Shown here piece by piece: positions 4,435 through 53,360 of a stretch of DNA of 53,360 bases. The notes under the pieces were generated by a model, which saw only the letters and a program-made list of their open reading frames with translations, did no database searches and was not told where the DNA came from. The position numbers and the translations under genes were made by a program. Origin of the DNA: a virus; the IMG/VR virus record IMGVR_UViG_3300045988_161096; one strand, written 5' to 3'. The first letter of the stretch is position 1. Each line of letters starts with the position of its first letter.

Positions 4435-4737
4435 ATGCTTAAATTTAAATATATTATTGATAGTGGAAACTTTTCAAGTATAGAAGAGTTTCAAGCGCAT
4501 TTAAATAGAATGGGAGCTAAAGGCTATGAACTAGTTCAATGGCAGTTAGTTAATTTCGTAAATTGCTGCAGCACAATTCAGCCTACTAGTGATACACTAT
4601 CAACACTTATAACTTGGAAAATAGAGGACCATGATTCACGATGGCATAATAGATATAGCTACAGGCTTAAGTGCTTCTACAAAAAAGTGGAAGAACAAGA
4701 AAGTAAAGTGGAGCAAATTAATCGACAAACTTTCTAA
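4435..4737 (+). CDS. hypothetical protein (100 aa); the 3' 107 nt overlap the primase gene
   Basis: ATG-initiated ORF placed 4 nt after the polymerase stop. Only the first ~65 aa look protein-like. See the finding on the overlap. Confidence 0.35.
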   Translation: MLKFKYIIDSGNFSSIEEFQAHLNRMGAKGYELVQWQLVNFVNCCSTIQPTSDTLSTLITWKIEDHDSRWHNRYSYRLKCFYKKVEEQESKVEQINRQTF

Positions 4738-7123
4738 GCCTGTAGTTACTAATGAGACCCATGCTCAATTCATGGCTGCTAACAAAACTGACCAATCTAA
4801 AATCAAAGACGTTGGAGGCTTTGTCGGCGGCTATCTTGACAAGGGTATACGTAAGAAAGCGTCTGTATCATACAGGCAATTAATTTGTCTTGATGTAGAT
4901 TTTTCTTATGCTGATTTTTGGTGGGATTTTACATTGCAATATGGCTGCGCAGCTGCTATATATTCAACGCATAAATCTACACAGAGCAAACCTCGTCACA
5001 GATTGCTTATCCCTATTAATAGAGAGGTATCTGTTGACGAATATCAGGCTATATCCAGACGTATAGCCGGTAACTTAAATATAGAATTGTTCGACCAATC
5101 TACATTTGAGCCAGAAAGACTTATGTTTTGGCCAAGTGTATCATCTGATATAGAATATTATTTTGAATATCAAGATGGAGAATGGCTTGATGCTGATGCA
5201 GTTCTTGAAACGTATGATGACTGGAGGAATACATCTGAATGGCCATCTAGTAGTAAAATATCAGAAGGTTTATTATCTGATATTAAAAAGCAAGAAGACC
5301 CAGAAGAAAAGTCAGGCATAATTGGAACATTCTGTAGAACATACTCGATTCAAGATGCTATTAGCACATTTCTTAGTGATGTATATGAGGAAGCAGGCGA
5401 AGACCGATATACCTATAAATTAGGTTCTACAACTGGAGGTCTTATCGTTTATAACGATAAATTTGCTTTTTCGCATCACGGAACAGACCCAGCAAGTGGA
5501 AGGCTGTGCAACGCATTTGATTTGGTTAGAATACATAAATTTGGACATCTTGACTCTGGACCCGATTCAAAGGTTTCTCAGCAAAAGATGGAAGAATTTG
5601 CTACGACTTGTACTGAGGTCAAAAAGAAAATAGCTGAAGAGAATTTAGAGCATGCAAAATTAGATTTTGATGGGTTAGATGCTGCTAATGAGGAAAGTGC
5701 TGACGATGATGATTCTTATGATGATTCATGGCTTTCACAACTCAAAGCCAATAAGAAAGGCGAATATGACAGTGATTCTAACAATCTTAATCTCGTTTTG
5801 CAGAATGATAAATACCTCAGAGGTGCATTTAGACTGAATGAGTTTGACAGTAAAACATATATCATGAGGTCTATGCCTTGGCGTAAGATAGATTCTCCAG
5901 AACCAGTAAAAAATGTAGATTACTCAGGCATTCGTAATTACATAGAATGTGTATACAACATTGTATCTGTATCGAAAATCGATGATGCTGTGATGCTTGC
6001 CGCCCAAAAGAAGTCATTTCACCCAGTAAGAGACTATCTGAAATCTCTTTCATGGGACGGCATAAATAGAATTGATACACTTCTTATTGATTATTTCGGA
6101 GCCGAAGATACTAAATATACAAGAGCTACTATTCGCAAAGCTCTGTGTGCTGCAGTAGCTAGGATATTCAATCCTGGAATAAAATACGATATGGTTCTTG
6201 TGTTAGTTGGAGCTCAGGCTACATATAAATCTACGTTCATACGTAAACTTGGCAAGGACTGGTTTAGCGATTCGTTCAACACCTTTCAAGGTAAAGAAGC
6301 TTATGAGCAGTTACAAGGCGCATGGCTTATTGAAATGGCTGAGTTATCGGGTTTAAAGAAAGCTGAGGTTGAGACTGTAAAACAGTTCATAACTAAAACA
6401 GAAGATATGTTTAGACCTGCTTATGGTAGAACTGTAGAAACTTATAAACGTCAATGCGTGTTCTTTGGAACTACAAATGACATGGAGTTTTTGCGCGATT
6501 CTACAGGTAATCGCCGATTCAATCCTATTGAAGTTCGTCCTAAGTTTGCAACAAAGATAGTTGCCAAAGACTTAACTGATGATATTATAGACCAAATTTG
6601 GGCTGAAGCTGTTCAGATGTATCAGAATGGCGAAAAACTGTATTTCTCAGAAGAGGAGAATGAGCTTGCAAAGAAGAGCCAACAAAGCCACTCTGTAACT
6701 GATGACAGAACTGGAATAATCGAAGAATATCTAAACATGAAGTTTCCTTCTAGCTGGAGCAAGAAAGATTTATTCGAACGCCAGCAGTGGTTAAATGACC
6801 CACTAGCTGAAAAGGGAACAGAATACAAAGAGTTTGTTTGCTCTTACGAGATATGGTGTGAATGCTTAGGTGAGGAGCGTAAGAATTTTAATTCTTATAG
6901 CACTCGTGAGATAAACAACATAATGAAGACCCTTCCAGGTTGGGAATATGTTGGTTCTAAGAGAAAATCATTTGGCAAGATTTATGGTAAGCAAAAATAC
7001 TATAAACGCATAAAGCCTGTTCAAGAAGACCCTGTAGCAAAAGCTATGAGAGAACTTGAAGAGCTTTTAGGCGATAAACCTACCGATGATGAGATTAAAG
7101 CAATGTTAGGAGATTTATATTAA
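4631..7123 (+). CDS. DNA primase/helicase, VirE (VapE)-family with N-terminal primase-polymerase-like region
   Basis: 830 aa. P-loop-like GAQATYKSTFIRKLG. VirE-type block WLIEMAELSGLKKAEVETVKQFITKTEDMFRPAYGR...FFGTTND..FLRDSTGNRRF. N-terminal LICLDVDF / HRLLIPINR acidic and His motifs. Confidence 0.8.
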   Translation: MIHDGIIDIATGLSASTKKWKNKKVKWSKLIDKLSKPVVTNETHAQFMAANKTDQSKIKDVGGFVGGYLDKGIRKKASVSYRQLICLDVDFSYADFWWDFTLQYGCAAAIYSTHKSTQSKPRHRLLIPINREVSVDEYQAISRRIAGNLNIELFDQSTFEPERLMFWPSVSSDIEYYFEYQDGEWLDADAVLETYDDWRNTSEWPSSSKISEGLLSDIKKQEDPEEKSGIIGTFCRTYSIQDAISTFLSDVYEEAGEDRYTYKLGSTTGGLIVYNDKFAFSHHGTDPASGRLCNAFDLVRIHKFGHLDSGPDSKVSQQKMEEFATTCTEVKKKIAEENLEHAKLDFDGLDAANEESADDDDSYDDSWLSQLKANKKGEYDSDSNNLNLVLQNDKYLRGAFRLNEFDSKTYIMRSMPWRKIDSPEPVKNVDYSGIRNYIECVYNIVSVSKIDDAVMLAAQKKSFHPVRDYLKSLSWDGINRIDTLLIDYFGAEDTKYTRATIRKALCAAVARIFNPGIKYDMVLVLVGAQATYKSTFIRKLGKDWFSDSFNTFQGKEAYEQLQGAWLIEMAELSGLKKAEVETVKQFITKTEDMFRPAYGRTVETYKRQCVFFGTTNDMEFLRDSTGNRRFNPIEVRPKFATKIVAKDLTDDIIDQIWAEAVQMYQNGEKLYFSEEENELAKKSQQSHSVTDDRTGIIEEYLNMKFPSSWSKKDLFERQQWLNDPLAEKGTEYKEFVCSYEIWCECLGEERKNFNSYSTREINNIMKTLPGWEYVGSKRKSFGKIYGKQKYYKRIKPVQEDPVAKAMRELEELLGDKPTDDEIKAMLGDLY

Positions 7124-10063: not shown

Positions 10064-11254
10064 ATGGTAGAAGAAGTTATTCAGCCAGTAAAACGTGGTA
10101 GAGGTCGTCCACGTAAAAATCCAGGCGACCCAACTCAGTCTTATACTCGTAAAAATTCAGCCAACCCATTAGCTGATAATCATGAGTACTTTAAGCATTT
10201 GCCAGATAGAAATCTCAGTGTAAGCGAAGAGAACTTGCAGATGTTCTTCGAGACTATGTATGAGCGCCAGATGATTTGGAAACGCAGATTCATTGACAAG
10301 ATTCAGGCTCCATGGACAGATGACCCTATTTTCCAGGAAAATAAATTCCCTAATCTGTATCGTGAGCTCGACCGCAGTTCTTGGTGGCTTATCTCTAATA
10401 TCATTATGGATGATAGCCTATCACTTAAGAATAAAGTTTGGAAGTGTATCGTTTACAGATTGTTTAATTCTCCAGACTTTTTTGAGTTCTTAGCTTCTGT
10501 TACAGATTGGAAAGGTGGAATTCCTGACTACGAAAAGTTTAAGGAACAGCAGCCTAAGTTCATAACAATCGCCAAAACACTTCAGAATATGGGTGCTAAG
10601 CCATTTACCAATGCTTACATAATTAGTTCATCTTTTGCTGCCAAGACTGGTAAAAATAGAGCAGAAGCTTACGCTGATACTGCATTATCTGAATTGTGGG
10701 GTGCTATCGATATTATCATTGATACAGTTCTTATTGCAGAGTCAACGAGAGATATTATTGATGTTTTGTCAGCTATTCCTGGAGTTCAGAAGTTTATTGC
10801 TAATGAGCTGATGCAGGATATGATTTACATTAATCGATTCTCAAAAGAGGATTTTATTCCGTTTAATGTAAATGAACTGACAAATATTGGTCCTGGTTCA
10901 CTTCTTGGTTTGCGCATCTTGTTCCCTAACAGGGTTATCAACTCTCAGCGTGTAGCAGGTATGAAGGAACTTCTTGCTATGGCTGAAGAGAAACTCAATG
11001 AAGTTGCCGAAGTTCATGGAGAACCAATGGTATATGCTAAGTTTAATGCTGAAACTGGAGGCTATGAACCATCTAGCGAATTCAACCTTACAATTAATAA
11101 TATTGAAGGTTGGTTGTGCGAATATTCCAAGTATTGGAAGTTATCAATTGAAGTAGGCAAAAAGCAACGTAAGTTTAACCCAGTTTCAGAGGCTGATACA
11201 TACGATGGTACCAATGGTGCTAAGCCTGAAACTGAAACAGAAGATTTAATGTAA
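10064..11254 (+). CDS. AT-hook protein, candidate DNA base hypermodification enzyme (aGPT-Pplase-like; tentative)
   Basis: 396 aa. N-terminal AT-hook KRGRGRPRKNPG. The block YERQMIWKRRFIDKIQAPWTDDPIFQENKFPNLYRELDRSSWW resembles, from memory, proteins annotated as putative DNA base hypermodification protein. Neighbours are a methyltransferase, a dUTPase-like gene and a ThyA-like gene. Confidence 0.35.
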   Translation: MVEEVIQPVKRGRGRPRKNPGDPTQSYTRKNSANPLADNHEYFKHLPDRNLSVSEENLQMFFETMYERQMIWKRRFIDKIQAPWTDDPIFQENKFPNLYRELDRSSWWLISNIIMDDSLSLKNKVWKCIVYRLFNSPDFFEFLASVTDWKGGIPDYEKFKEQQPKFITIAKTLQNMGAKPFTNAYIISSSFAAKTGKNRAEAYADTALSELWGAIDIIIDTVLIAESTRDIIDVLSAIPGVQKFIANELMQDMIYINRFSKEDFIPFNVNELTNIGPGSLLGLRILFPNRVINSQRVAGMKELLAMAEEKLNEVAEVHGEPMVYAKFNAETGGYEPSSEFNLTINNIEGWLCEYSKYWKLSIEVGKKQRKFNPVSEADTYDGTNGAKPETETEDLM

Positions 11255-13306: not shown

Positions 13307-13533
13307 GCAAAGCTATAGATTTACGAAAATATACAAAACTGGTGCCAACTCCAGTAGCAGAAATTACTAAAGAACAGTTTTTTGCATACGAAAGAACTAG
13401 AATGGAAGGCAAAGTGAATATGCTTGATTTGAATGCAGTTTGTCCATTAACAGGCTTAAAGCCTGAAGACATTAAAGCTATTCAGCAAAACTTTCAAGTG
13501 TTAAATCAAAAATTCAATAAATCATGGAGGTAA
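13303..13533 (+). CDS. hypothetical protein
   Basis: 76-aa ORF coupled on both sides to its neighbours. Confidence 0.5.
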   Translation: MSKAIDLRKYTKLVPTPVAEITKEQFFAYERTRMEGKVNMLDLNAVCPLTGLKPEDIKAIQQNFQVLNQKFNKSWR

Positions 13534-14276
13534 ATTTTGAAATTTCTTATCCATATATTACCCAATCTGACAATAATTGGGTATATGAAAATGCAAATCA
13601 AGCATTTAATATTTTGGCTAATCGTATATTTAAACTTGGTGAAATGCCAGGTAATAATACAGTTAGACTTGAAAATGTTGGTTTTTATATTGCGCATCCA
13701 GAGCACAATCATATTACTGAAGATTGGCGCCAATGGAATGCTAAATATGCAGAAAGAGAGTGGAATTGGTACCTATCTCATTCGAGAGATGTATCAGAGC
13801 TTCAAAAGCATGCTCCTATTTGGAAACGCATGCACTGTGGCGATTGTCAAGTCAATTCTAATTATGGCTGGCTGTGGAACCGCAACAAACAGCTACAGAA
13901 AGTAATTGAGAAACTTGAGGACAATCCAGATACTCGTCAAGCATGGCTTACACTGTATGATGGTAAGGAAATGGATGACTATGAATATGATACTCCATGT
14001 ACACTGAATATTGGTTTTAAACTTGAATATATGAGTCAGAAAACTCTTAATATGACAGTTATGATGAGAAGTAATGACTTGATATTTGGTTTTTGCAATG
14101 ACCAGTACTGTTTTTCTCAGTTACAAAAGTATGTTGCTTCTAGAATTGGTGCGGCAGTTGGAACATATTATCATTTTGCTCAGGACTTGCATATATACTT
14201 ACCAAGCACAAAAGTATATCCAAAGCACATTAATGATTATTTAGTAGACAATTTTGTAGACTATTTGAAATTATGA
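13524..14276 (+). CDS. thymidylate-synthase-family pyrimidine methylase/hydroxymethylase (dUMP or dCMP; specificity not resolvable by eye)
   Basis: Catalytic Cys context DTPCTLNIGF. MMRSNDLIFGFCNDQ corresponds to the RS.D..LG.PFN block. SNYGWLWN corresponds to the GPVYG.QWR block. DLHIY is also present. It is strongly diverged from canonical ThyA, as phage hydroxymethylases are. Confidence 0.7.
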   Translation: MEVNFEISYPYITQSDNNWVYENANQAFNILANRIFKLGEMPGNNTVRLENVGFYIAHPEHNHITEDWRQWNAKYAEREWNWYLSHSRDVSELQKHAPIWKRMHCGDCQVNSNYGWLWNRNKQLQKVIEKLEDNPDTRQAWLTLYDGKEMDDYEYDTPCTLNIGFKLEYMSQKTLNMTVMMRSNDLIFGFCNDQYCFSQLQKYVASRIGAAVGTYYHFAQDLHIYLPSTKVYPKHINDYLVDNFVDYLKL

Positions 14277-15985: not shown

Positions 15986-16403
15986 AATAATTCAACTCAC
16001 TGGCGATTCTTTCTATTATTTGAGAGATGGCGAAGAGCCTATTGACCCAGATAATCTTGAAGAAGCAGAAGAGTTTAAAACTCTGTTTGGTAATTTCAGA
16101 TTTATATCTGAACCAGAACCTATTGTGGGCACCGATATGGTAGAAGCTAAAATATCAGCAGCAGAACGAAAGAAAATAGCAGGTCAATTCATATTTGAGT
16201 TTATCATTCTTCCAAATAAAAAAGCTCATGTGCGAGTTTTTGATTTAAAAACCAATTATGAGGAAAGAAATCAAATTCAAGACTTGGAGCCAATTGGTGA
16301 CGCATATTGGGTTGAGTATAGATACCACAGTACTTCTCGTTGTAGAGATTTACTTCCAGTTTGTAAGATACACGAATATGAAAAATGGTTTGGCAAAAGT
16401 TAA
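15975..16403 (+). CDS. hypothetical protein
   Basis: The track ORF starts at GTG 15960; the in-frame ATG at 15975 (MKTEIIQLTG...) is preferred. This is the last gene of the early block and is followed by hairpin A. Confidence 0.55.
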   Translation: MKTEIIQLTGDSFYYLRDGEEPIDPDNLEEAEEFKTLFGNFRFISEPEPIVGTDMVEAKISAAERKKIAGQFIFEFIILPNKKAHVRVFDLKTNYEERNQIQDLEPIGDAYWVEYRYHSTSRCRDLLPVCKIHEYEKWFGKS

Positions 16404-16405
16404 TT

Positions 16406-16461
16406 TCCTATCTGGTGTTCTCTTGGGACTATTTCCGAGAAAATGCCAGATAGGATTTTTT
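16406..16461 (+). terminator. intrinsic terminator; copy A of the GTGTTCTCT hairpin family
   Basis: 10-bp stem TCCTATCTGG / CCAGATAGGA plus inner TTCTC / GAGAA, followed by T6. Begins 3 nt after the stop of the upstream gene. Confidence 0.75.
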
Positions 16462-18958: not shown

Positions 18959-19016
18959 AACAATTAGTTGATTGTTTTCTTCTCATAAATGTTTTTAAGT
19001 ATACTGTTTGAAATTG

Positions 19017-19060
19017 AACTCCTAGGAAGCGACTAATGGACTGTGGTCCTAGGAGTTTTT
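19017..19060 (+). terminator. intrinsic terminator
   Basis: 11-bp perfect stem AACTCCTAGGA / TCCTAGGAGTT with a 19-nt loop, running into T5 (19056-19060). Confidence 0.7.
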
Positions 19061-19064
19061 AAAT

Positions 19065-19133
19065 GCCAAGTAAAACAAATATCTGCTGTTCTGTTTAAAG
19101 GATTTATGCAGGGTTCGATTCCCCGCCTTGGCA
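19065..19133 (+). ncRNA. tRNA-like element with a non-canonical core
   Basis: T-loop GGGTTCGATTCCCC (19111-19124). Acceptor-like 6-7 bp GCCAAG / CTTGGC. The core has an AAACA / TGTTT stem with a 14-nt loop and a TAAA-GGA-TTTA hairpin. I found no 5-bp/7-nt anticodon arm by exhaustive hand scan. Confidence 0.35.
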
Positions 19134-19196
19134 CTATTGGTTCTAACTACGGTGAGAACCCATAATTTTAATAGAATTTTAATTGTTTTTAGGCGG

Positions 19197-19234: not shown

Positions 19235-19608
19235 ACAGTAACATATAGAAACGGCTCGCTGGTGGCAAATTTTAAAATTTTCAGATATTTATATATAAAT
19301 AATATATTAAATTATATAGAATATTTGATCCACACCGCATTATTTTTATTAATTAATATAATTATAAGGCTTAATATAAAATATTGAATTCTAGGTACCA
19401 GGAAATGGTTTTAGCTAGAAAGCTGACATCTGGATATAGAAACCGGCAAGTTAAGCCTACAAACTTTAACATTTCATTTAACTACTGTTAACATAAAAAA
19501 TTCTTGTGTGAACTGTGATAACTATCTTACCTGTCCATTGGCAGTTGACGGTTCTAAAGGTAGTTGGGTGTGTGATAGTTGGTGGAGAATGGTGTGATAA
19601 AACCTCAA

Positions 19609-19665
19609 TTCCTATCCAGTGTTCTCTCGCTGGCCATTTCTAAGATTTGGCCAGCGGGAATTTTT
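19609..19665 (+). repeat. copy B of the GTGTTCTCT hairpin family (terminator-like, but no upstream ORF)
   Basis: TTCCTATCCAGTGTTCTCTC, then the 8-bp stem GCTGGCCA / TGGCCAGC, then GGGAATTTTT. Confidence 0.7.
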
Positions 19666-21311: not shown

Positions 21312-21332
21312 TTTGGTAATTTAATATCTCAA

Positions 21333-21388
21333 TTCCTATCTGGTGTTCTCTCGGACCCATTTCCGCAGAATCACTGGGTAGGAATTTT
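21333..21388 (+). terminator. intrinsic terminator; copy C of the GTGTTCTCT hairpin family
   Basis: 13-bp stem TTCCTATCTGGTG / CACTGGGTAGGAA containing three G-U pairs, followed by T4. Lies 22 nt after the stop at 21311. Confidence 0.7.
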
Positions 21389-21574: not shown

Positions 21575-21626
21575 AAATCCAGTGTTCTCTCGGAGCCATT
21601 TCCTGGAAAATCACGGCTGGGAATTT
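21575..21626 (+). repeat. copy D of the GTGTTCTCT hairpin family
   Basis: AAATCCAGTGTTCTCTCGGAGCCATTTCCTGGAAAATCACGGCTGGGAATTT. No ORF lies upstream. Confidence 0.65.
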
Positions 21627-21687
21627 GCATGAAGCCTTGTAGAATTGCGGCTTTATACCTGATAAGTATCTGACCTATATTTATATA

Positions 21688-21733
21688 TTTTTAGACTAAA
21701 TAAAGTCAAAAAATTTTTTTATTTAAAATATTT
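21688..21733 (+). repeat. 46-bp perfect direct repeat, copy 1 (contains the promoter-type box AAAGTCAAAAAATTTTTTTATTT)
   Basis: TTTTTAGACTAAATAAAGTCAAAAAATTTTTTTATTTAAAATATTT is identical at 21915-21960. Confidence 0.9.
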
Positions 21734-21914
21734 CGCCCGAAGCTCATATTTGGCCTATATGGGCTTTAAATTATAAAATAATATATTTATATATAAAATA
21801 AAAAATAAGGCCTTATAGGCCCATTAAATGGCCTTAAAATCGATTTTTTAATATAATATATAAACTAGATTTTTATATATTATTTATAAAAATTTTTTAC
21901 TTTATTATTAATAA

Positions 21915-21960
21915 TTTTTAGACTAAATAAAGTCAAAAAATTTTTTTATTTAAAATATTT
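21915..21960 (+). repeat. 46-bp perfect direct repeat, copy 2
   Basis: Identical to 21688-21733. Confidence 0.9.
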
Positions 21961-22123
21961 TTATATATGCGTGTACTTATATATTTATATAAAAAATTTT
22001 TTATAATAATTTTTTACTTAGACTATAATTTATAATTAAAATAATATATCGATTTATTATTATTTTTGACTATATAATAATAAATTTTTTTATTTAAAAA
22101 TAAAATATTAATAAAAGTCAAAA

Positions 22124-22157
22124 AATTTTTTTATTTAAAATATTATTATTATCTTTG
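22124..22157 (+). promoter_or_regulatory. promoter: AAAGTCAAAAAATTTTTTT box plus -7 box TATCTTTG (22150-22157)
   Basis: About 130 bp here are paralogous to 19960-20090. The first ATG with the conserved leader is 232 nt downstream (22389). Confidence 0.5.
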
Positions 22158-22388
22158 CACTATAAATAATAAATATATAGCCTATATAATTATATTAGTT
22201 ATAATTAGATTTTTTTATATTATTTATTAATTATTTTTAGAGTTCTTTGACTTATTGGACAACGTTAGCAATAATTAAGGATTATTAGCAACGGTTAAAT
22301 AATATTAATTTTATAATATTTAATTATATTTTAATATTTTTAGTGTTAGTTAAAAAATTATAAAAACAATTAAATTATATTAAAAATT

Positions 22389-22730
22389 ATGAAAAAAATT
22401 AAAATTTCGCGTTCTTTCACTTTTAAGGCTTATAAAGTTGAAGTAGACCAAAAAATATTAAATGATTCTAAAAAATATTTAGAATTCATAAATAATATTA
22501 AAAGTGCAAATATTAGCAAACATTATGGTTCTTTCACTTTTAAAAGCGATTGTGAATATTATGTAGAAAAAAATATTTTAGATATTTTTAATAATATTTC
22601 ACAAGGTCCAAAAAATGCTAATTTTTATTTAATTTATAAAATTTCAACATTAGAGGACTCAAATATTAGTGATTCTTTGCTCATGTCAATTTATTATAAT
22701 ATTGACGAAGAAAAAATAATTTTAGATTAA
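22389..22730 (+). CDS. hypothetical Asn/Lys/Ile/Tyr-rich protein encoded in the AT-rich island
   Basis: 113-aa ATG ORF with the leader AACAATTAAAT. Followed by a palindromic hairpin. Confidence 0.5.
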   Translation: MKKIKISRSFTFKAYKVEVDQKILNDSKKYLEFINNIKSANISKHYGSFTFKSDCEYYVEKNILDIFNNISQGPKNANFYLIYKISTLEDSNISDSLLMSIYYNIDEEKIILD

Positions 22731-22740
22731 TTTAATAAAT

Positions 22741-22766
22741 ACTAGGCTATATTAATATAGCCTAGT
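22741..22766 (+). terminator. palindromic hairpin ACTAGGCTATAT-TA-ATATAGCCTAGT (possible terminator)
   Basis: 12-nt perfect arms, followed only by ATTT, so it would be a weak terminator. Confidence 0.4.
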
Positions 22767-22787
22767 ATTTCTAAAAATATATTAAAT

Positions 22788-23183
22788 ATGGACAATAAAG
22801 ACGAATTTTATTTAAAAATAGTGGTTTTTAGTCATTTTTTCGATTATTTAGCACTTGGGCTAAATTATACTAATGACTATAAATTTAGTGATTATTATAA
22901 ATTATTTGAACTTATTAATAAAGATGAAAATATTAAAAAGTTTAATAATATTATTAATAATTATGATTTATTAGATTTCGTTAACGATATTTATAATAAT
23001 AATATAAATATTAAATTATTTTATGATACGCAAAAATTATTAGTAAATATTAGCGATGGTGAAAAATATTATATTTTTGGCATAGATATTAGGCATAAAA
23101 TATTTAAAAATTATAAAAATATGCAACATTTTGTTAGCGAACTCGAAGATTATATAGATTTTACTTTTAATAATAAAAATTAG
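22788..23183 (+). CDS. hypothetical Asn/Lys/Ile/Tyr-rich protein encoded in the AT-rich island
   Basis: 131-aa ATG ORF. Its stop lies inside the following terminator stem. Confidence 0.5.
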   Translation: MDNKDEFYLKIVVFSHFFDYLALGLNYTNDYKFSDYYKLFELINKDENIKKFNNIINNYDLLDFVNDIYNNNINIKLFYDTQKLLVNISDGEKYYIFGIDIRHKIFKNYKNMQHFVSELEDYIDFTFNNKN

Positions 23184-23210
23184 GCTAATTATTATTAGCC
23201 TAATTTTTTT
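23180..23210 (+). terminator. intrinsic terminator
   Basis: 10-bp stem TTAGGCTAAT / ATTAGCCTAA with a TATT loop, followed by T7. Confidence 0.75.
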
Positions 23211-23972
23211 ATTTAATTATTTTAACGTTTGTTTATTTTAGTTTAATGGTTAAATAATTTAAAAATTTAATTAATTTTAAGCTAAAAATCGGTATTTTTT
23301 TGACACTTATTAGCATTTAATTGCTAAAAAATATTAAATTATTCTAATTTTAGCTAATAGGTTGTTAAATTATTCTAAATTATTCTAAATTTAATTAATT
23401 TTAGGCTAAAAAATTAATAGCCTATTAGGCTAAAAAATATTAATTTTAATAAAAATTAGGCCCCCTTAACAATTATTAGCCTGGCAGCCCCTTATTATTT
23501 AAAGACTTGTCCAAATGCTGAGCCAAAAATTTCTGCTGTACACATCTTATGACTTGTGAATAGGTTGATAGAGATATGCTTCATCAATTCATAAAATACT
23601 GACAAGGAGGGGCCCTTAGGCTCAATTCTATATTGCGCATTTTGTTCAGAAAAATTTTTGCGCAAAATAGGTTCGCTGGACGACACGCTATAGTAGTATA
23701 AATGTATATTGGTATGCGCCTACGCGCGTATATAGAGGGTTCAAAAATATTAAAAACATGCCCAGGGATGAAAGTAGTGTACCTCTGGGCCATTATAATA
23801 TAAAAATAATAAAGATATATAGTTTAATATATAAAAATGGTTCTGAGGCTCATTATTTTAATTCTTACTAGAAATATATAACAACTAATCACGGTTCCGC
23901 CTTTTGCGCTTACAAGTCTATATTATAAGTAGCGATTTTCACGGGATTTAAGACAATTACTACGGAATAATG

Positions 23973-24243
23973 GTTCACCAAAGTAAAAATCTTTTACGGT
24001 TCCTCATAACCTATTGAAAACCAATCACTTATATAAACGTTCCTGGAGGCCGGACCTTTTCTATAACCCTAAACCAATTTTTTAAAATTCACATTATATG
24101 TTTCTGGTAATACATTTTTAAAAAGTTCATTTTCCTTATATAGAGTATAGGGTAACTTGGGTAACTTTTTATATAAGTGTTTGATTTCCAATAATTTAGA
24201 AGTGCCCCGACCTCATTCACCTATAGTTCACCTATGGTTCACG
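23973..24243 (-). repeat. iteron/inverted-repeat module L1; inverted paralogue of 52069-52329
   Basis: On the - strand there are three 11-bp-spaced GTGAAY repeats (24215-24243), GGGTAAC x2, ~32-bp imperfect inverted arms (24008-24040 and 24165-24197) and a distal GGTGAAC (23973-23979). Its reverse complement aligns by eye along the full length of the 52-kb module. Confidence 0.8.
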
Positions 24244-24340
24244 GACTGCCATTTCATCAATATATTTTACAAAATATGTGATTTCCTCAGTAAAATTTAA
24301 CTGAAATGTAATAATTTTTTAATTTTTCAAGTAAAAAGCT

Positions 24341-24363
24341 TTAACACCTACGGTTTCAGTAAT
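24341..24363 (+). repeat. 23-nt perfect direct repeat TTAACACCTACGGTTTCAGTAAT, copy 1
   Basis: Identical at 24459-24481. Both copies are preceded by GTGATTT(C/TT)CTCAGTAAAA. Confidence 0.9.
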
Positions 24364-24458
24364 TAATTCTTTTCACACAAACATTACTAAGAACTGAAGC
24401 ATTAAATTACCACGTTTTTACAAAAGTGATTTTTCTCAGTAAAAATGAGTAAAAAGTT

Positions 24459-24481
24459 TTAACACCTACGGTTTCAGTAAT
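24459..24481 (+). repeat. 23-nt perfect direct repeat, copy 2
   Basis: Identical to 24341-24363. Confidence 0.9.
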
Positions 24482-24539
24482 CAAATGTTAAAAAATATTA
24501 AAATTTATATAAAAATTTCCTAGATTCAATAATTTTTAG

Positions 24540-25202: not shown

Positions 25203-25949
25203 ATGAAAAGTATAGATAGAATTAATGATGATATTTCTGATATATTACCAGATTCATCAGACTTATTAGGTACAGATGGTCTCGAGCAACGAGCTTCCAT
25301 GGTCCAGGATAAGTCCAAGTCGATACATGACAGGAAAACAGCCCAAGAGCTTGCAAAAGCTAAATTAAAACTTGCTAGAGCTGCTGAAGGCCAAGCTGCA
25401 AGACAAGCTGTTAAGGCGTTTAGACAGAAAAAGCAAGAAGCTCAAGAGGCTGTATATCAGCAACTCGAAGATGAAGACAAGCACATGCCAGCCAAAGAAG
25501 TTATAGATTTGGCCAACAGGGTAGCTGCTAGTAATGGTCAGCCTGCAATGGCAGAAAACGTTGCAAAGCAGATTATGCTTTCTCAAGGCACAACTCGACC
25601 AGAAGTCGTAAAGCTTCTCAGTTCACTCAACATAAATCTTGATTTGCAGTTATCGAAGACTGATACAGCTAATCTGTTAGCTTGCCTTCTTACTGCTAAT
25701 GAGAAGCAGCTTCAAGCCATATACGATAATGATAAGACGCCTCTCGCTATTAAAATAGTGGTTAAACGTCTCATGAATGACTCTAGAATTGGAGAAATCC
25801 AGACAGTAGAGAAACTCTGGGACCGTATTTTCGGAAAAACTGGAATGATGCTTGATTTGCCACAAGAATCTAAGGCTGCAGGTATCATACCTAATACTCC
25901 AGTTTCTAGAGAGGCTTATATTCTGATTAGAGAGTCACTTCTCAAATAA
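25203..25949 (+). CDS. possible terminase small subunit
   Basis: 248 aa, located upstream of TerL. The C-terminal ...EKLWDRIFGKTG resembles the DR.(L/F)GK ending seen in many TerS proteins. This is positional and weak-motif evidence only. Confidence 0.4.
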   Translation: MKSIDRINDDISDILPDSSDLLGTDGLEQRASMVQDKSKSIHDRKTAQELAKAKLKLARAAEGQAARQAVKAFRQKKQEAQEAVYQQLEDEDKHMPAKEVIDLANRVAASNGQPAMAENVAKQIMLSQGTTRPEVVKLLSSLNINLDLQLSKTDTANLLACLLTANEKQLQAIYDNDKTPLAIKIVVKRLMNDSRIGEIQTVEKLWDRIFGKTGMMLDLPQESKAAGIIPNTPVSREAYILIRESLLK

Positions 25950-26576: not shown

Positions 26577-29318
26577 ATGAACACTCCAAAAAGAACACTC
26601 TCCGAAATGCAGCAGAGAGTTATAAATGCAGATACTCTTAAGCATGATATGGTAAATGCTAAAGACTTATTGCGTCTTGAGATGCTTTCATCATTCAAGG
26701 CTTATACTAAAGCTATGTTTAAAGCTCAGTATAACCGAAACTTTATTGTAGCTGAGCATCATGAAGCTATATTCAAGGCTTTACAGGACGTAGTTGATGG
26801 TAAGTGCAGAAGACTTATCATCAATATGCCTCCTAGATATGGCAAATGCTGTGCTATTGGCACACAGATAACACTCGCCGATGGAACTAGAAAGTCTATA
26901 GAAAGTATAAAACCTGGAGAATACGTCTTATCATTTCACAATGGAAAAGCTGTAAGGAATAAAGTTATTGCAACTGAACCGGCTTTCAAAAATAGTAGCA
27001 TGATTACAATGAAGTCAGGCAGAAAAGTTATATGTAGCTTAGACCACCCATGGTTAACTCCTTTTGGTTATAAGAAAACACAAGAACTTAAAGCTGGTGA
27101 GAGAATTTATGCCTTGAAATCTGATATAGAGCAGCCCGACTGTTTGTCTGATTCAGAGGTTATACTTATTTCAGCCATGTTATTTGATGGCTGTTGTACC
27201 AAGCCAGGTAAGTTGGGATTTACAAATGTAGATAACTTGGCAGTAGACGCAGTTTCTAGAGCTGTGTATAATCTTGGAGGCATTATGAAAAAAGGAGCAA
27301 CAACAGACTGTCAATATTATATATTAGGGGGTAAAAATGGCGTAATAAATAATGTATTAACTGAATATGGCTTAGTAGGTCATAGCTCATATAACAAAAG
27401 AATTCCAGATAAAATCTTTAAGACTTCTAGCCGACAAAAGTATTTATTTTTAGGAATGATGATAGCTACCGATGGAACGATTAAACAAAGTGGTCAAATT
27501 TCCATAGGCTTAGCTAACGAGGGCCTAGCTAATGATATTCAGTATTTACTGTCAACTATAGGTATTCCAGCCACTTTAAACTGGTACCCTAATGCTAAAG
27601 CGGGAATATGGAATGTAGCTATATCCAGAAGATATGCTCAGAGAATGTTCAATAGACTTGATTTTTATGGAAAGGCTAATACTGCGGCTGAATATATTTT
27701 AAAGCCTTCTAAGATAGAACGCACGTGTACATATCCATATAGTATAATTCAGAAAGAAGGTCTCTATAAAAAGGTGCATATTGATTTAGGCTATAAATCT
27801 GTTGGTCCTGGCAGAAATATGTCTGAAGACACATTTAAAGAACTAGTTGATTTGCTACCTGATAAGTTGGGAAAATACTGGGCTTACGACTTTTATCCAG
27901 ATGAGATAAAAGATGTAGTTTCAGTAGGAGCACAAGAACTTATACATCTTGAAGTCGAGAATGACCACAATTTCATAGCAAACGGATTGGTTTCACATAA
28001 TACGGAATTGGCAATTAAATCATTTATTAGCTGGTGCATGGCCCTCAACCCACGCTGTAGATTCTTGCACCTATCATATTCCGACGTGCTTGTAGCAGAT
28101 AACTCAGACACTGTAAGGTCTATCATGCAAGAAAGTCTATATAAAGAGCTGTTTCCGCAATCTAAGCTTGAAAAAGAGAAAGCTTCTAATAAACGTTGGC
28201 GAACAGCTGCAGGCGGAGAGATGTATGCGGTTTCAACACAAGGTCAGGTAACCGGTTTTGGTGCTGGTAATGTGGATGAAGAGGAACCAATCAAAGGTTC
28301 TGAAACTGCCGACAACCTTACATTCGATGAAGATATGAATGGAATGCTTGAGCAGATAGGTGCTAAGACTAATGTGTTCCAAGGTGCAATCATGATTGAC
28401 GACCCTATTAAGCCTGAGGATGCTGATTCAGATATAGTTCGTGAGCGAATTAATTTGCGATTCGAAAATACAATTCGTAACCGTACTAATAGCCGCAACA
28501 CTCCTATTATCATAATCATGCAGAGACTACATGAGCACGACTTGTGTGGATATTTGCAGGAGATAGAGCCAGATGAGTGGACAGTTCTATCGTTGCCGGC
28601 TATACAGGAAGACCCTATTACTCATGAACGCCATGCCCTGTGGCCTATGAAGCATACACTCGAAGAGCTTGACCACATGCGAGAGATTAACCCACTCGTA
28701 TTCGATACTCAGTACATGCAGGACCCTACACCAAAAGAAGGTCTTATGTATTCTGAAGGTTTTAAGACTTATAACAAAGACCAATTACCACAAGGCCGAG
28801 AAGCTGCTCACAAGTGGAACTACACAGATACAGCTGATACAGGAGCTGATAATCTGTGCTCCATCTGTTTTATAGATACACCTGAGTATGTATATGTTAC
28901 AGATGTGTTGTTCACAGATGCGCCAATGGAGAAAACAGAGCCAAAGACAGCAGAGATGTTAACACGAAATCAGACCGTATCAGCTCTTATAGAATCGAAT
29001 AACGGTGGTAGAGGCTTTTCTAGAAATGTTAAAAAGATACTTCGTGTAACGCATAGAAACTTTAGAACTGCTGTTAGAACGTTTACTCAGTCTGAGAAAA
29101 AAGCAACACGTATATTTACTAATTCTGGAATGTGCCAAAGCGATATTCTGTTCCCAGAAGGCTGGGAAAAGAAGTGGCCTAAGTTCTATGCGGCTCTTAT
29201 GTCGTATCGTAAAGATAATAAGAAACAGCAGCACGATGATGCACCAGATGCTCTTACAGGCATAATTGAGATGCATAGTAGAAAATATAATACTAATAGA
29301 ATAAGACTGAGAAATTAA
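26577..29318 (+). CDS. terL: terminase large subunit, interrupted by an intein (extein about 528 aa)
   Basis: The Walker A motif PPRYGK|TELAIK is restored after removing residues 91-475. Walker B is AIMIDDPIKPED, followed by IIIMQRLHEHDL. The nuclease half has YTDTADTGADNLC, ALIESNNGG and HDDAPDAL. Confidence 0.9.
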   Translation: MNTPKRTLSEMQQRVINADTLKHDMVNAKDLLRLEMLSSFKAYTKAMFKAQYNRNFIVAEHHEAIFKALQDVVDGKCRRLIINMPPRYGKCCAIGTQITLADGTRKSIESIKPGEYVLSFHNGKAVRNKVIATEPAFKNSSMITMKSGRKVICSLDHPWLTPFGYKKTQELKAGERIYALKSDIEQPDCLSDSEVILISAMLFDGCCTKPGKLGFTNVDNLAVDAVSRAVYNLGGIMKKGATTDCQYYILGGKNGVINNVLTEYGLVGHSSYNKRIPDKIFKTSSRQKYLFLGMMIATDGTIKQSGQISIGLANEGLANDIQYLLSTIGIPATLNWYPNAKAGIWNVAISRRYAQRMFNRLDFYGKANTAAEYILKPSKIERTCTYPYSIIQKEGLYKKVHIDLGYKSVGPGRNMSEDTFKELVDLLPDKLGKYWAYDFYPDEIKDVVSVGAQELIHLEVENDHNFIANGLVSHNTELAIKSFISWCMALNPRCRFLHLSYSDVLVADNSDTVRSIMQESLYKELFPQSKLEKEKASNKRWRTAAGGEMYAVSTQGQVTGFGAGNVDEEEPIKGSETADNLTFDEDMNGMLEQIGAKTNVFQGAIMIDDPIKPEDADSDIVRERINLRFENTIRNRTNSRNTPIIIIMQRLHEHDLCGYLQEIEPDEWTVLSLPAIQEDPITHERHALWPMKHTLEELDHMREINPLVFDTQYMQDPTPKEGLMYSEGFKTYNKDQLPQGREAAHKWNYTDTADTGADNLCSICFIDTPEYVYVTDVLFTDAPMEKTEPKTAEMLTRNQTVSALIESNNGGRGFSRNVKKILRVTHRNFRTAVRTFTQSEKKATRIFTNSGMCQSDILFPEGWEKKWPKFYAALMSYRKDNKKQQHDDAPDALTGIIEMHSRKYNTNRIRLRN
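26847..28001 (+). mobile_element. 385-aa intein with a LAGLIDADG homing-endonuclease domain, inserted in the TerL P-loop
   Basis: Starts with Cys (CCAIGTQITLADG). Block B is CSLDHPWLT. Two LAGLIDADG motifs: LISAMLFDGCC and LFLGMMIATDGT. Ends ...HNFIANGLVSHN, followed by the +1 Thr. Confidence 0.9.
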
Positions 29319-29324
29319 AATATT

Positions 29325-29924
29325 ATGGGTAGAGGAAATTTTAAGAAAAAGTTGATAGCTGGAGTTGGTATCAACGATTGTGATGAACCTGTGCACGATG
29401 AGAATGGTAAGTTAAATAAGGCTTACACTGTTTAGAAGAGTATGATTCACAGGTGCTATAGTGATAATTACCATACGAGAAATCCAGCTTATAAAGGATG
29501 TACAGTGTGTGAAGATTGGCGCAGATTATCAAATTTTAAAGCGTGGTTCTATGATAATTATGTTGATGGCTATCAGCTTGATAAAGATGTATTAGTAGAA
29601 GGTAATACTGTGTATTCACCTGAAACATGCTGCTTTATTCCAGGCGAAATAAACAAGTTGTTTGAATCTAAGAAGAAAACAGCTGAGCTTCCTATAGGTA
29701 TACAGTTAGATACTTACAGAAATAAATACATGGTTGCTGTCGGTATAAATGGCAAATTAAAGCACATAGGAAGATTTGACACTTTAAAAGAAGCTATAAT
29801 AGCAAGAAATAAGGCTAAATACGAAAGTATTAAAGAACTTATTGATAGGTATAAAAGCAGTGGAAATCTCCCAGATAAAGTTTACAATGCTATACTCAGA
29901 AAGATAAAGATTTATAAATTTTGA
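29325..29924 (+). pseudogene. AP2-domain homing-endonuclease-like gene interrupted by an in-frame TAG (29433-29435); the 3' ORF 29442-29924 may still be expressed
   Basis: Same frame on both sides: MGRGNFKKKLIAGVGINDCDEPVHDENGKLNKAYTV*KSMIHRCYSDNYHTRNPAYKGCTVCEDW... The TAG sits where related proteins, as I recall them, have Trp (TGG). AP2-like block: IGIQLDTYRNKYMVAVGINGKLKHIGRFDTLKEAIIARNKA. Confidence 0.55.
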
Positions 29925-29937
29925 TTTGTTAACATAC

Positions 29938-29983
29938 TTTAACATAAAAAATTTTATTATCTCAAATATTTTTAGTATATTTG
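29938..29983 (+). promoter_or_regulatory. promoter: TTTAACATAAAAAATTTT box plus -7 box TATATTTG (29976-29983), driving the tRNA cluster and late genes
   Basis: Exact TAnnTTTG. The tRNA cluster starts about 125 nt downstream. Confidence 0.6.
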
Positions 29984-30106
29984 CATTGTAAATGTTAGTT
30001 TAGGGTTATGGTTGTTTTTTAAGGAAAAGGTTTTCTTGATAACAGTTCTTGATTATTAAAGTTGTTAATTATTTTAGTTCAATCAGCTCTCAGCGGAGAG
30101 CTACAT

Positions 30107-51442: not shown

Positions 51443-52045
51443 ATGAAGCAACTGAATTTTTATAGTATACTTTCACAATTTTTAATCGTGATTCTCTTGG
51501 GGGCTTTTTTGTATATTTGGCACCAAGGAAAACAGCATAAAGCTTGTGAAATTGCATACCAGAATAGTATATCAGTGAGTATGGATTCACTGCATAAATA
51601 CAAAGTGGCCGACAGCCTAAACGCAATTCATATTTCAAATATAGAATTGTCTTTAAAGCAATATAAGCAGCTAAGAGCTGATGATGCTAAATTAATTAAG
51701 CAGCTTAAAGCTGATAAACTTACTGCTGTAGTAAATCCTGAAACTATTATTAAGTACAAAATAAAGACACAGTTAAAAGATTCTATAATATACACAGATA
51801 CAGTAAAGGCCATTAATTATCATGATTCCTGGAATTCAGTATCAGGATATTTTACAAAAGATTCGGCAAATCTAAATATACAGTCTAAAGATGAGCTTTT
51901 AATTACAAAGTCTATAGAACGAAAAAGATTTTTAGGCATTAAACTTAGTCCTAAATGGTTTGGTTATCGCAATTTGCAACTCAACATTGTTAGCAAAAAT
52001 CCAAAATGTGCTATCAGCAACGTAGAGTATATAGAGCTAAAGTAA
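51443..52045 (+). CDS. N-terminally anchored coiled-coil protein; spanin-like lysis candidate
   Basis: The track start at 51401 is GTG and lies inside a 9-bp hairpin (CCACTATAT / ATATAGTGG); the in-frame ATG 51443 is preferred. TM segment: ILSQFLIVILLGAFLYIW. Confidence 0.45.
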   Translation: MKQLNFYSILSQFLIVILLGAFLYIWHQGKQHKACEIAYQNSISVSMDSLHKYKVADSLNAIHISNIELSLKQYKQLRADDAKLIKQLKADKLTAVVNPETIIKYKIKTQLKDSIIYTDTVKAINYHDSWNSVSGYFTKDSANLNIQSKDELLITKSIERKRFLGIKLSPKWFGYRNLQLNIVSKNPKCAISNVEYIELK

Positions 52046-52068
52046 AAATATTTAACAAGGTAACAATT

Positions 52069-52329
52069 CGTGAACTATTCGTGAACGTTATAGGGTAACA
52101 CCTAACCTATTGAAAGTCAATCACTTATATAAAAAGTTACCCAAGTTACCCTATAATCTATATAGTCCAAATGATATTTTTTAAAAACATATACTATAGC
52201 CGTAGTATATGTTTTTTAAAAAATATCCCTATAAGTTATAGAAAAGGTCCGTGCTCCGGACACTTTTTATATAAGTAATTGATTTTCAATAGGTTATATG
52301 GTTCCGTAAATATTTTTTATTTGGTGAAC
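52069..52329 (+). repeat. iteron/inverted-repeat module L2
   Basis: CGTGAAC at 52069 and 52080 (11-bp spacing), and GGTGAAC at 52323. GGGTAAC at 52093 opposes GTTACCC at 52136 and 52145. 34-nt inverted arms at 52104-52137 and 52262-52295 (2 mismatches). Nested ~22-bp-arm palindrome at 52174-52226. GC hairpin GTCCG-TGCTC-CGGAC. Confidence 0.85.
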
Positions 52330-52466
52330 TTCGCCCATCTGATAAATTTATAAGATTTATGTAATATAGAATTGTGTTACGCGTACGTGCGTATATACGC
52401 ATACATTATATAAGATTTATAAGTTCAAGTGTTAACAGTAGTTAAAAAATTTTTTGTTAACTTCTT

Positions 52467-52511
52467 TTAACACAAAAAATTTTTTTATATGAAGAATTTT
52501 TGTTACTTTTG
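52467..52511 (+). promoter_or_regulatory. promoter: TTAACACAAAAAATTTTTTT box plus -7 box TACTTTTG (52504-52511)
   Basis: Exact TAnnTTTG 39 nt upstream of ATG 52550. Confidence 0.65.
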
Positions 52512-52549
52512 CAAATGAAAATAATAAAGAACATAACTTCATATTTTAC

Positions 52550-52975
52550 ATGGAAAAATTTAACATAAATAAAATTATGAGCCAATATGGCTTACAGGAG
52601 CAAGAGATTGCAAATCTCTTATGGCCAATGGTCAAATATCCTGAACTTGGCTTTAAGCGAGTATTAAGAGGTGAAACTTACCTCGATTCTGCTCAGATAT
52701 GCGCACTGGCAAATTATTTGCAAGTACCAGTTTCAGAACTCTTTACAGTAGAAGATACTGATTGGCATGCTATCTCTAAAGATATGCGAACAATTTTCAC
52801 AAAAGGTGATTATAAGGTTATAATAGGAAAAGACTTATCCTCAATATCATTTTGGCATAAGAACGATAATTTTCGTAATTTTGTAACACCAGTAAATGCA
52901 ATGAAAGTCAAAGATTTTTTAATTTGGATTGACACAATTGTAAAAGAACATAAACAAGAATTGTTAAACAGATAA
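52550..52975 (+). CDS. XRE-like helix-turn-helix regulator (tentative)
   Basis: 141 aa. The N-terminal YGLQEQEIANLLW...LRGETYLDSAQICALANYLQVPVSELF has the pattern of an HTH_XRE domain. It is the first gene after the regulatory region. Confidence 0.5.
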   Translation: MEKFNINKIMSQYGLQEQEIANLLWPMVKYPELGFKRVLRGETYLDSAQICALANYLQVPVSELFTVEDTDWHAISKDMRTIFTKGDYKVIIGKDLSSISFWHKNDNFRNFVTPVNAMKVKDFLIWIDTIVKEHKQELLNR

Positions 52976-53180: not shown

Positions 53181-53360
53181 ATGGACAATATTAAGATTTC
53201 AGTAGATGTTAATGTACATCTCTCAGAGAAGACAGAGAATTTTATTTCTAGTTTGGTAAGTAAGCTGATTTCAGCTCCGACAGTCCCAGCTCCTGTTATT
53301 TTAGGAGCAGCTCCAGCAGCTCCAGCAGCTCCAGCAGCTCCAGCAGCTCCAGCAGCTCCA
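53181..53360 (+). CDS. 5' part of the wrap-around gene (continues at nt 3-215)
   Basis: ATG 53181. MDNIKISVDVNVHLSEKTENFISSLVSKLISAPTVPAPVILG(AAP)6 runs off the window end on a codon boundary. Confidence 0.7.
   Translation, partial: MDNIKISVDVNVHLSEKTENFISSLVSKLISAPTVPAPVILGAAPAAPAAPAAPAAPAAP
53307..53360 (+). repeat. 9-bp tandem repeat GCAGCTCCA x6 at the window end
   Basis: Read directly. Same unit as nt 1-55. Confidence 0.95.

Follow-up and report, generated by a model that had tools for sequence, protein, structure and literature searches.

The IMG/VR virus record IMGVR_UViG_3300045988_161096 (53,360 nt; the whole stretch analysed is called the window below) carries a quasi-palindrome of about 285 bp at 52039-52329, which we term module B, and an inverted, diverged copy of the whole module, module A, at 23972-24243. 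The late block ends at 52045 and the first early gene, encoding a small helix-turn-helix (HTH)-like protein, starts at 52550; module B sits in the 504 bp that separate them. Our favoured, if tentative, interpretation is that module B is a replication origin with two-fold symmetry that is recognized by the phage's Rep-type primase-helicase, and that module A is a partial inverted paralogue that would bind the same factors. This interpretation is built on sequence comparison and is supported indirectly, by the homology of the primase-helicase to Rep-type initiators, by the rule that describes iteron origins, by the presence at the modules of the only heptamer clusters in the genome, by the invariance of the motif cores and by the convergence of the heptamers on the arms of the palindrome. 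Module B is built as follows.

52039-52056, + strand: outer left symmetry element, AAGTAAAAATATTTAAC, directly after the stop codon (52045) of the last lysis gene

52059-52099, + strand: four direct heptamer iterons, G(G/T)(T/G)AAC (GGTAAC at 52059, GTGAAC at 52070, GTGAAC at 52081, GGGTAAC at 52093)

52104-52137, + strand: left arm, AT-rich, 34 bp, composed of the palindromic core ATTGAAAGTCAAT (52109-52121) and ACTTATATAAAAAGT (52123-52137)

52136-52151, - strand: two inverted heptamers, GTTACCC, starting at 52136 and 52145 (9-bp spacing) and oriented towards the left arm

52173-52227, no strand assigned: AT-rich centre, with T6A5 ... T6A6 tracts around a small hairpin-capable core

52247-52268, no strand assigned: GC hairpin GTCCG-TGCTC-CGGAC (stem-loop 52247-52261) with flanking A-run and T-run, found in a terminator scan of both strands

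52262-52295, - strand: right arm, with the core ATTGATTTTCAAT at 52278-52290

52304-52329, + strand: outer right symmetry element, CGTAAATATTTTTTATTT, and after it a single direct heptamer, GGTGAAC (52323-52329)

The sequence-only reading of this DNA had described paired iterons, long inverted arms, a nested palindrome and a GC hairpin between 52069 and 52329. Direct reading and shuffled controls recovered every one of these elements, far beyond chance, with the palindrome now given as 52173-52227; a fourth direct heptamer (GGTAAC at 52059), the outer symmetry and the inverted second copy come in addition. The four direct heptamers are phased at 11, 11 and 13 bp, and the two CGTGAAC copies at 52069 and 52080 belong to a longer repeat, ATTCGTGAAC, present twice at a distance of 11 bp. 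The left and right arms are complementary at 32 of 34 nt; a repeat finder extends this inverted repeat to 47 nt at 85% (52091-52137 / 52262-52308), and the outer symmetry elements add an inverted repeat of 16 nt at 88% (52039-52054 / 52307-52322). The palindrome in the AT-rich centre has 20-nt arms that are 95% complementary and 15-nt arms that are 100% complementary, and nearest-neighbour calculation makes this centre the least stable stretch of the module and a local stability minimum (about -42 kcal per 40 bp, compared with a genome mean of -49.8, standard deviation (sd) 4.4). The gapless inverted-repeat score of module B was 29, where dinucleotide shuffles averaged 10.9 (sd 2.2, maximum 18), and its 218-nt core, treated as single-stranded DNA, folded with a z of -11.9.

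The motifs are also unevenly distributed over the genome. GTTACCC occurs six times in the window, where 2.1 copies would be expected; six of the 20 GTGAAC copies in the genome lie in the 0.55 kb that the two modules make up, and so do six of the 21 GGTAAC copies. In the whole genome, 300-bp intervals with at least four heptamers were found at modules A and B only, and the motif ATTG-N5-CAAT is almost confined to the modules. Rfam gave no gathering-score match in the window except for two tRNAs elsewhere, its E-value mode yielding spurious microRNA-hairpin matches far below threshold, and a search for DNA similarity between the module and isolate phages returned no match. A small open reading frame (ORF) at 52171-52278 was discarded as a gene, as its frame is broken by T/A-run indels among relatives.

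The proposed trans-acting factor is encoded by a single gene.

4631-7123, + strand: primase-helicase, 830 aa, proposed initiator

This protein has a VapE-like domain (Pfam PF05272, E = 2e-84), and its residues 366-724 match the Rep1 helicase of the Staphylococcus aureus pathogenicity island (SaPI) SaPI1 (PDB 7PDS chain A, E = 1.8e-80). An AlphaFold model of its last 191 aa (predicted local distance difference test score, pLDDT, 87; helix-helix-hairpin at residues 99-154) aligned to 7PDS over about 165 columns in Foldseek (E ~1e-6); the next matches were weak and included many winged-helix proteins (forkhead, IRF, MecI, RTP). The modelled C-terminus is a winged-helix domain and a putative reader of the iterons. 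SaPI Reps are self-loading initiator-helicases whose C-terminal winged helix recognizes penta- or hexanucleotide iterons, and SaPI origins hold 6-12 iterons and an AT-rich centre, with at least two iterons on each side in opposite directions; probably two Rep hexamers load, one per side (PMC9371898). Module B shows this layout, with four direct heptamers, the AT-rich left arm, two inverted heptamers and one more heptamer at 52323. The same holds for module A, and in a related lineage, L100, for both arms.

Module A is an inverted, diverged paralogue of the whole of module B, and repeat alignment joins the two over 163 nt at 74% and 57 nt at 82%. Its parts are listed here in window coordinates.

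23972-24243, - strand: module A

23973, 24150, 24159, 24215, 24226 and 24237: heptamers (GTTCACC at 23973; GGGTAAC at 24150 and 24159; ATTCACC at 24215; GTTCACC at 24226; GTTCACG at 24237)

24007-24039 and 24164-24198: the two arms, the first with its core at 24013-24025

24039-24064: GC-rich hairpin and T-run

24077-24135: AT-rich centre

The two modules are about 72% identical and have the same order of motifs: phased heptamers, arm, two inverted heptamers, T/A-rich centre, GC-rich hairpin, arm and one heptamer. The site of module A is the boundary of the early and late operons: the early region ends before it, and the first late gene begins after it, at 24586. The window ends and starts with the repeat GCAGCTCCA, and so represents a circular or circularly permuted complete genome of about 53 kb; on this circle the modules are separated by 28.1 and 25.3 kb. 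The terminator stem in the window's own A copy is weaker than in most related A copies, which carry GTCCGG-CCT-CCGGAC followed by a T-run on the transcribed strand.

Relatives allow the constraint on each part of the module to be judged. About 60 loci were examined, many of them one contig seen twice, giving about 30 distinct contigs from several human-gut metagenome samples and collections; ten B and nine A modules from related contigs (19 in total) were compared in detail. In all relatives the modules occupy the same two junctions, and module A is inverted relative to B in all nine related A junctions examined. The GTGAAC cores are invariant across the 19 modules while the spacers between them vary, and the same invariance holds for ACTTATATAAAAAGTTACCCAAGTTACCC, TTTATATAAGT, CGTAAA, TTGGTGAAC and the T5-6A5-6 tracts; TTTTTA is kept in both A and B copies. 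The GTTACCC pair is invariant in all B and most A copies, one GTTACCC being replaced in many A copies by GTTCACC, the other iteron variant, and GTGAAC is replaced by GTTAAC at the equivalent module position in L100. The heptamer variants are therefore interchangeable between A, B and L100 modules, which defines the iteron as G(G/T)(T/G)AAC. Modules A and B have diverged by 28% and yet have these motif cores in common, which argues that both are under selection. Within-genome identity between A and B (0.72) equals that between genomes (0.717), so that there is no ongoing homogenization; ongoing gene conversion between A and B was accordingly rejected, only occasional A/B mosaics being seen.

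The pattern of change in the arms points to protein binding. Their inner parts are more conserved than their outer tips, and the A/T tract of the arm core flips in several A copies (ATTGGTTTTCAAT vs ATTGGAAATCAAT) with ATTG and CAAT unchanged, as would suit a palindromic site for a dimeric protein rather than a stem. The arms are 94.6% paired across relatives, yet only five double-change cells were found; the inner stem of the central palindrome shows one-sided, uncompensated changes, and the GC hairpin only one-sided changes of the G-U type. An RNA or DNA stem between the arms was for these reasons discarded as the conserved constraint: only four pairs show double changes, the core flip breaks complementarity, the inner palindrome is uncompensated and module A folds poorly.

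More distant relatives extend the comparison. In L100 the HTH protein is 55% identical and the primase-helicase 86% identical to those of the window, the winged-helix segment is identical and the iterons are conserved. As a quasi-palindrome the B module of L100 is cleaner: it spans 285 bp, its 78-nt arms match at 87%, and it has an outer symmetry pair of 17 nt at 82%. Each arm is bracketed by heptamers directed towards it, and two heptamers, GGTTAACttcGGTAAC, stand at the position of the window's GC hairpin, which is thus derived from the inner iteron pair. In the Bacteroides fragilis phage BF486P2 the primase-helicase is 60% identical overall and about 42% identical in its C-terminal domain. 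BF486P2 is without heptamers and has another iteron cluster (TGCCAT..TGGCA, eight copies) 500 bp upstream of its A-equivalent. A segment of about 89 nt with a hairpin and ATTG-N5-CAAT sites stands at both of its junctions, in direct orientation and at similar distances to the downstream genes, and one site, AATTGATTTTCAAT, lies about 280 bp upstream of the HTH gene, a distance similar to that of the window's right arm. We count in favour of an origin both the identical winged helix with retained iterons in L100 and the diverged C-terminus with absent heptamers in BF486P2.

Our data are consistent with a model in which the winged-helix domain of the primase-helicase would read the G(G/T)(T/G)AAC heptamers. 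These converge on each AT-rich arm of 30-35 bp, four heptamers on one side of the left arm and two on the other. The mirror arrangement at the right arm is seen in L100. The two arm units lie in inverted orientation, about 170 bp from each other, on either side of a T/A-rich centre that would melt easily, a geometry from which we infer the loading of two hexamers in opposite orientations and bidirectional synthesis by the fused primase, the T7-like polymerase, the protein that binds single-stranded DNA (SSB) and the exonuclease. The ATTG-N5-CAAT core of each arm probably binds a dimeric accessory factor, for which the early HTH protein and a DNA-bending protein of the host are the candidates. 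The hairpin at 52247-52261 together with ACTTTTTAT has the form of an intrinsic terminator and was a scan match on both strands; the element at 52247-52268 thus looks like a putative bidirectional intrinsic terminator. Such a hairpin, with its A- and T-runs, would terminate + strand transcription in either orientation, so that B would close the late operon and A the early one. More speculatively, module A might serve as a secondary origin or as a Rep-bound fork barrier, as proposed for oriR of phage SPP1.

Several observations weigh against an origin at module B. SaPI origins lie just downstream of rep, whereas the rep-like gene of this phage ends at 7123 and is directly followed by ORFs with no heptamer cluster; module B, the nearest module, is about 5.7 kb upstream of the primase-helicase gene on the circular map. 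The centre is only moderately AT-rich in comparison with the neighbouring promoters. The strong self-complementarity of module B is not found in module A, whose own inverted repeat is weaker (score 17, compared with 10.1 (sd 2.1) in shuffles) and whose fold is weak (z = -1.6), and in lineage L103 only the GGGTAAC pair and one arm are left of module A. GC and AT skews at four-fold sites are the same in both halves of the genome and are uninformative on origin or terminus. Finally, the protein that binds the heptamers could be a transcription factor, since the early promoters carry as their paired motif GTTAAC, which serves as a heptamer variant in the module of L100. The transcription signals nearest to module B are the following.

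52427-52513, + strand: copy of the early promoter family, with paired GTTAAC motifs, an A6T6 tract and a TACTTTTG box, 37 bp upstream of the HTH gene

52550-52975, + strand: first early gene, small HTH-like protein, candidate alternative binder of the arms or heptamers

This arrangement bears out the earlier placement of the module upstream of the first early promoter and its regulator-like gene. The promoter belongs to a direct-repeat family, D2, whose six promoter-like copies each end just upstream of a gene and in which the GTTAAC pairs of the genome are concentrated; the TACTTTTG box is presumably the Bacteroidota -7 element. The HTH-like protein had no Pfam or PHROG match and matched the XRE-type structure 3op9 weakly (E = 0.1); a homologue with 38% identity occupies the equivalent place in BF486P2. 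Between module B and this promoter lies a 29-nt perfectly alternating purine-pyrimidine tract, TACGCGTACGTGCGTATATACGCATACAT (52378-52406), flanked by two TATAAGATTTAT repeats. It is the longest such tract in the genome (longest run in 200 shuffles: average 15.9 nt, maximum 21 nt), and shorter related TATATRCGYGTAC motifs occur upstream of other early promoters and near module A (16638, 19849, 21962 and 23721). The tract and the TATATRCGYGTAC motifs may be Z-DNA-prone or regulator sites.

These signals bring a purely regulatory role into view. We consider it somewhat unlikely, though it has substance, that the modules are operon-boundary elements, combining a bidirectional terminator with operators for a phage regulator such as the early HTH protein, and that replication starts elsewhere; a regulator at both junctions would time the early-to-late switch or insulate the two transcription units of a circular one-strand genome. 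Both copies lie exactly at operon junctions, each with a terminator-like hairpin and a downstream T-run on the + strand, and the common hairpin/ATTG-N5-CAAT segment of BF486P2 likewise stands at both junctions, similarly spaced from the downstream genes. The ATTG-N5-CAAT site behaves like a dimeric HTH site, and the exchange of GTGAAC for the early-promoter motif GTTAAC in L100 points the same way. However, the arms and heptamers stand 200-400 bp from the nearest promoter boxes, far for operators; phased heptamers in a four-plus-two arrangement converging on AT-rich DNA, within a two-fold symmetry of 285 bp, exceed what a terminator and operators would need; and the phage has an initiator-helicase that depends on iterons, for which the genome offers no iteron cluster elsewhere. 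Packaging offers another view of the same parts, as a pac- or cos-like site would set terminase small-subunit repeats and a bending-protein site around a cleavage region, as in the packaging-site models P1 pac and lambda cosB. Short repeats flank the centre on both sides, the arms carry AATCAATTACTTA, which resembles the IHF consensus, and the arm fits the E. coli form of that consensus, WATCAANNNNTTR. Module B lies between the lysis and early genes, where T7-like layouts have their termini, module A is located some 2 kb upstream of the terminase genes, and several contigs end inside the modules. A packaging site is nevertheless very unlikely, as copies in opposite orientations would package in opposite directions, GenBank relatives begin at arbitrary points, no link to terminase was found, and the contig ends scatter over more than 100 bp (52150, 52247/8, 52259/60 and 52403-52440; 24109-24178) rather than sharing a single nucleotide. 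With such scatter we rejected the contig ends as physical genome ends; breaks of the assembly graph at inverted repeats are more likely.

The sequence-only reading had left a choice between an origin, an operator complex and an invertible or mobile segment resembling a miniature inverted-repeat transposable element (MITE). The first has gained indirect support from the SaPI-Rep-like helicase, the unique iteron clusters and the layout expected of an origin, whereas the last, with its single orientation and fixed junctions, has not stood up. The segment proposed to be invertible, 52138-52261, has one orientation relative to its flanks in every related B copy, as does its counterpart relative to its own flanks in every A copy, across the roughly 30 distinct contigs. 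Long inverted arms around about 124 bp, in two copies per genome with opposite orientations, do recall a MITE, a reading to which we give next to no credence: the modules are fixed at the same junctions in all relatives, A-B homology reaches beyond the arms, the inner arm ends rather than the tips are most conserved, and no target-site duplication is visible in the flanks as read. The arm pattern itself, TATTGRAARYCAAWYACTTATATAA (25 nt), had five matches, always single, in 185,579 bacterial genomes, and in a metagenome scan it was nearly confined to this phage group. The evidence thus contradicts both the mobile element and the inner invertible segment, neither of which is supported. The five matches (L048-L052) are all in Bacteroidota, in unrelated genomes and unrelated intergenic contexts, and are probably chance occurrences in AT-rich intergenic DNA; with the metagenome matches nearly all from this phage group, we also rejected the arm as a pan-Bacteroidota host motif. 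The pattern stands in addition upstream of a promoter in one unrelated phage group (L033, L037, L038, L043 and L046). Recombination between whole modules, by which an A x B exchange would reverse the late half of the genome with respect to the early half, in the manner of the isomers of the 2-micron plasmid and herpesviruses, or by which the arms would flip the 124-bp centre, has only a slight chance of being their function. One contig, IMG/VR 3300045988_101614 (ENA ORPF01000756; L002, positions 1-4600), runs from inverted late genes, one of them with 98% protein identity to window 25203-25949, through a mosaic A/B module into the HTH gene, which is the exact product predicted from an A x B crossover; the other occasional mosaics and the exonuclease and annealing-type SSB of the phage fit with this. 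Yet this recombinant is single, with a coverage of 5.8x, and could not be told from a misjoin across inverted repeats, while the other loci, about 60, and at least 14 informative further contigs all have parental junctions. Five further look-ups for genomes with an inverted late region found none (three parental, two contigs ending too near the gene to tell), no recombinase was found among the ORFs scanned with PHROG and Pfam, the A-B identities show no sign of ongoing homogenization, and the centre is never inverted between its arms.

The origin that we propose for module B has its closest counterpart in the SaPI origins and their Rep and PriRep proteins. The helicase domain is clearly homologous to 7PDS, which the C-terminal model matches as well; SaPI PriRep5 has a fused primase, as does the primase-helicase of this phage; and in both systems short iterons, of penta- to heptanucleotide length, lie in opposite orientations around AT-rich DNA. 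The systems differ in that a Bacteroides-type phage stands here against a Gram-positive satellite, the candidate origin is apart from rep and the iteron sequences are other ones; the 285-bp quasi-palindrome, the two arm units, the extra ATTG-N5-CAAT site and the inverted partial copy 28 kb away are further differences. Bacillus phage SPP1 resembles this phage in its paired origin-like regions. Its oriL and oriR are two similarly organized regions, with repeats and an AT-rich unwinding element, far apart on a genome transcribed from one strand, one near the early and replication genes and the other intergenic; the second copy has been proposed to stall forks and so to bring about the switch from theta to sigma replication, with an exonuclease, an annealing protein and an SSB (PMC6316719, PMC3485210). 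An exonuclease and an annealing-type SSB are encoded here too. In contrast, the SPP1 initiator gp38 has no relationship to the one proposed here and depends on a separate loader and a helicase of the DnaB type, oriL is located within gene 38, and the SPP1 repeats are direct boxes with no two-fold symmetric palindrome. It is unlikely, on balance, that A and B work as a functional pair in which Rep at A would stall or trap forks started at B, recombination would switch replication from theta to concatemer mode with the exonuclease and annealing protein, and the late half would occasionally be flipped; such a pair would amount to a replication-mode switch of the SPP1 or 2-micron kind, with a palindromic origin as its building block.

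Two other comparisons are looser. The alpha primase-helicase of satellite phage P4 has a C-terminal winged-helix origin-binding domain, and the same short iterons occur in its ori and in crr, 4.5 kb away, neither of which has a large palindromic layout; the P4 iteron, TGTTCACC, resembles the GTTCACC of the modules. In herpes simplex virus (oriS and oriL), SV40 and papillomavirus, an AT-rich centre and inverted initiator sites form a palindrome, present in more than one copy per genome and located between transcription units. With these viruses the likeness is one of layout only, their proteins and hosts being unrelated to those of this phage.

The rest of the genome gives the setting. All real-looking ORFs of at least 80 aa lie on the + strand. 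PHROG scans identified a T7-like replication set, comprising an exonuclease, a gp2.5-like SSB of the annealing type, DNA polymerase A, the primase-helicase and a superfamily 2 helicase; the late block extends from about 24.6 kb as far as the lysis genes. With the portals of Bacteroides fragilis phages BF486P2 and BF503P4 the portal protein shares 69% identity, and close relatives are found among human-gut metagenome sequences; by its sequence relationships, the source is a human-gut, Bacteroides-type phage. The GCAGCTCCA tandem repeat, at 53272-53360 and 1-60, is part of a gene that runs across the ends of the window (from 53183 to 215), and many related contigs also break at this place.

The DNA around module A has features of its own. 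An extremely AT-rich island at 21650-23500 (GC 15-26%, compared with about 36% overall) lies just upstream; in it are two small ORFs (22389-22730 and 22788-23183) and repeated units that resemble promoters, along with hairpins containing GGCC. Also upstream, a GC-rich patch at 23440-23700 (TTAGGCCCCCTTAAC, GCCTGGCAGCCCC, CAAATGCT) has a recognizable counterpart in BF486P2 (L013) at 29880-29990; it had no Rfam match and, from this comparison, may be a conserved non-coding element. Two direct repeats of about 118 bp (AGTAAAAAGCTTTAACACCTACGGTTTCAGTAAT) occupy 24330-24489, between module A and a late promoter-like box at about 24540.

Nucleotide-modification genes are present in the genome. A 5-hydroxymethyldeoxyuridine (5-hmdU) DNA kinase helical domain (PF18723, E = 3e-42) was identified in the protein encoded at 10064-11254, the gene at 13524-14276 is thymidylate-synthase-like, and the BF486P2 homologues of these two genes are annotated as deoxycytidylate 5-hydroxymethyltransferases. 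Taken together, these findings suggest hypermodified pyrimidines in the phage DNA. The large terminase (26577-29318, 913 aa) matches terminase profiles in two stretches, and a 908-aa product at the equivalent position in a related contig (L099) has intein and LAGLIDADG Pfam matches, so that an intein is probable in the terminase; next comes a freestanding HNH gene (29442-29924). Early intergenic DNA holds four copies of a conserved element of about 45 nt, TTCCTATCTGGTGTTCTCTCGG (16394-16436, 19598-19640, 21322-21364 and 21577-21603), which begin a long hairpin and could be terminators or a small structured RNA family. The intergenic stretch 19000-19160 contains four CCTAGGA repeats and a tRNA-like T-arm (GGTTCGATTCC), in which neither ARAGORN nor Rfam called a tRNA; a tRNA-Leu at 2230-2305 was called by ARAGORN and not by Rfam.

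By its sequence features, module B would belong to a known kind of element, the iteron origin for a Rep-type initiator-helicase, here with an embedded terminator. New are the group of hosts, a large layout of two-fold symmetry whose arms are composite, a position apart from rep and a conserved inverted partial copy at the other junction. Replication origins of phages of Bacteroides and other gut Bacteroidota are essentially uncharacterized. If our interpretation is true, it would provide a concrete origin for a widespread human-gut phage group, whose relatives occur in many independent gut metagenome assemblies, and would carry a mechanism of Gram-positive satellites, the self-loading initiator-helicase of SaPI type, over to a Bacteroidota phage of virulent type whose replisome is T7-like. 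The opposite loading of two helicase hexamers, stated as an open question for SaPI Reps (PMC9371898), is directly suggested by the two-fold symmetric layout. The inverted second copy represents a natural test of the idea, raised for SPP1, that a second origin-like site controls the mode of replication, and a defined module of origin and terminator would aid the engineering of these phages.

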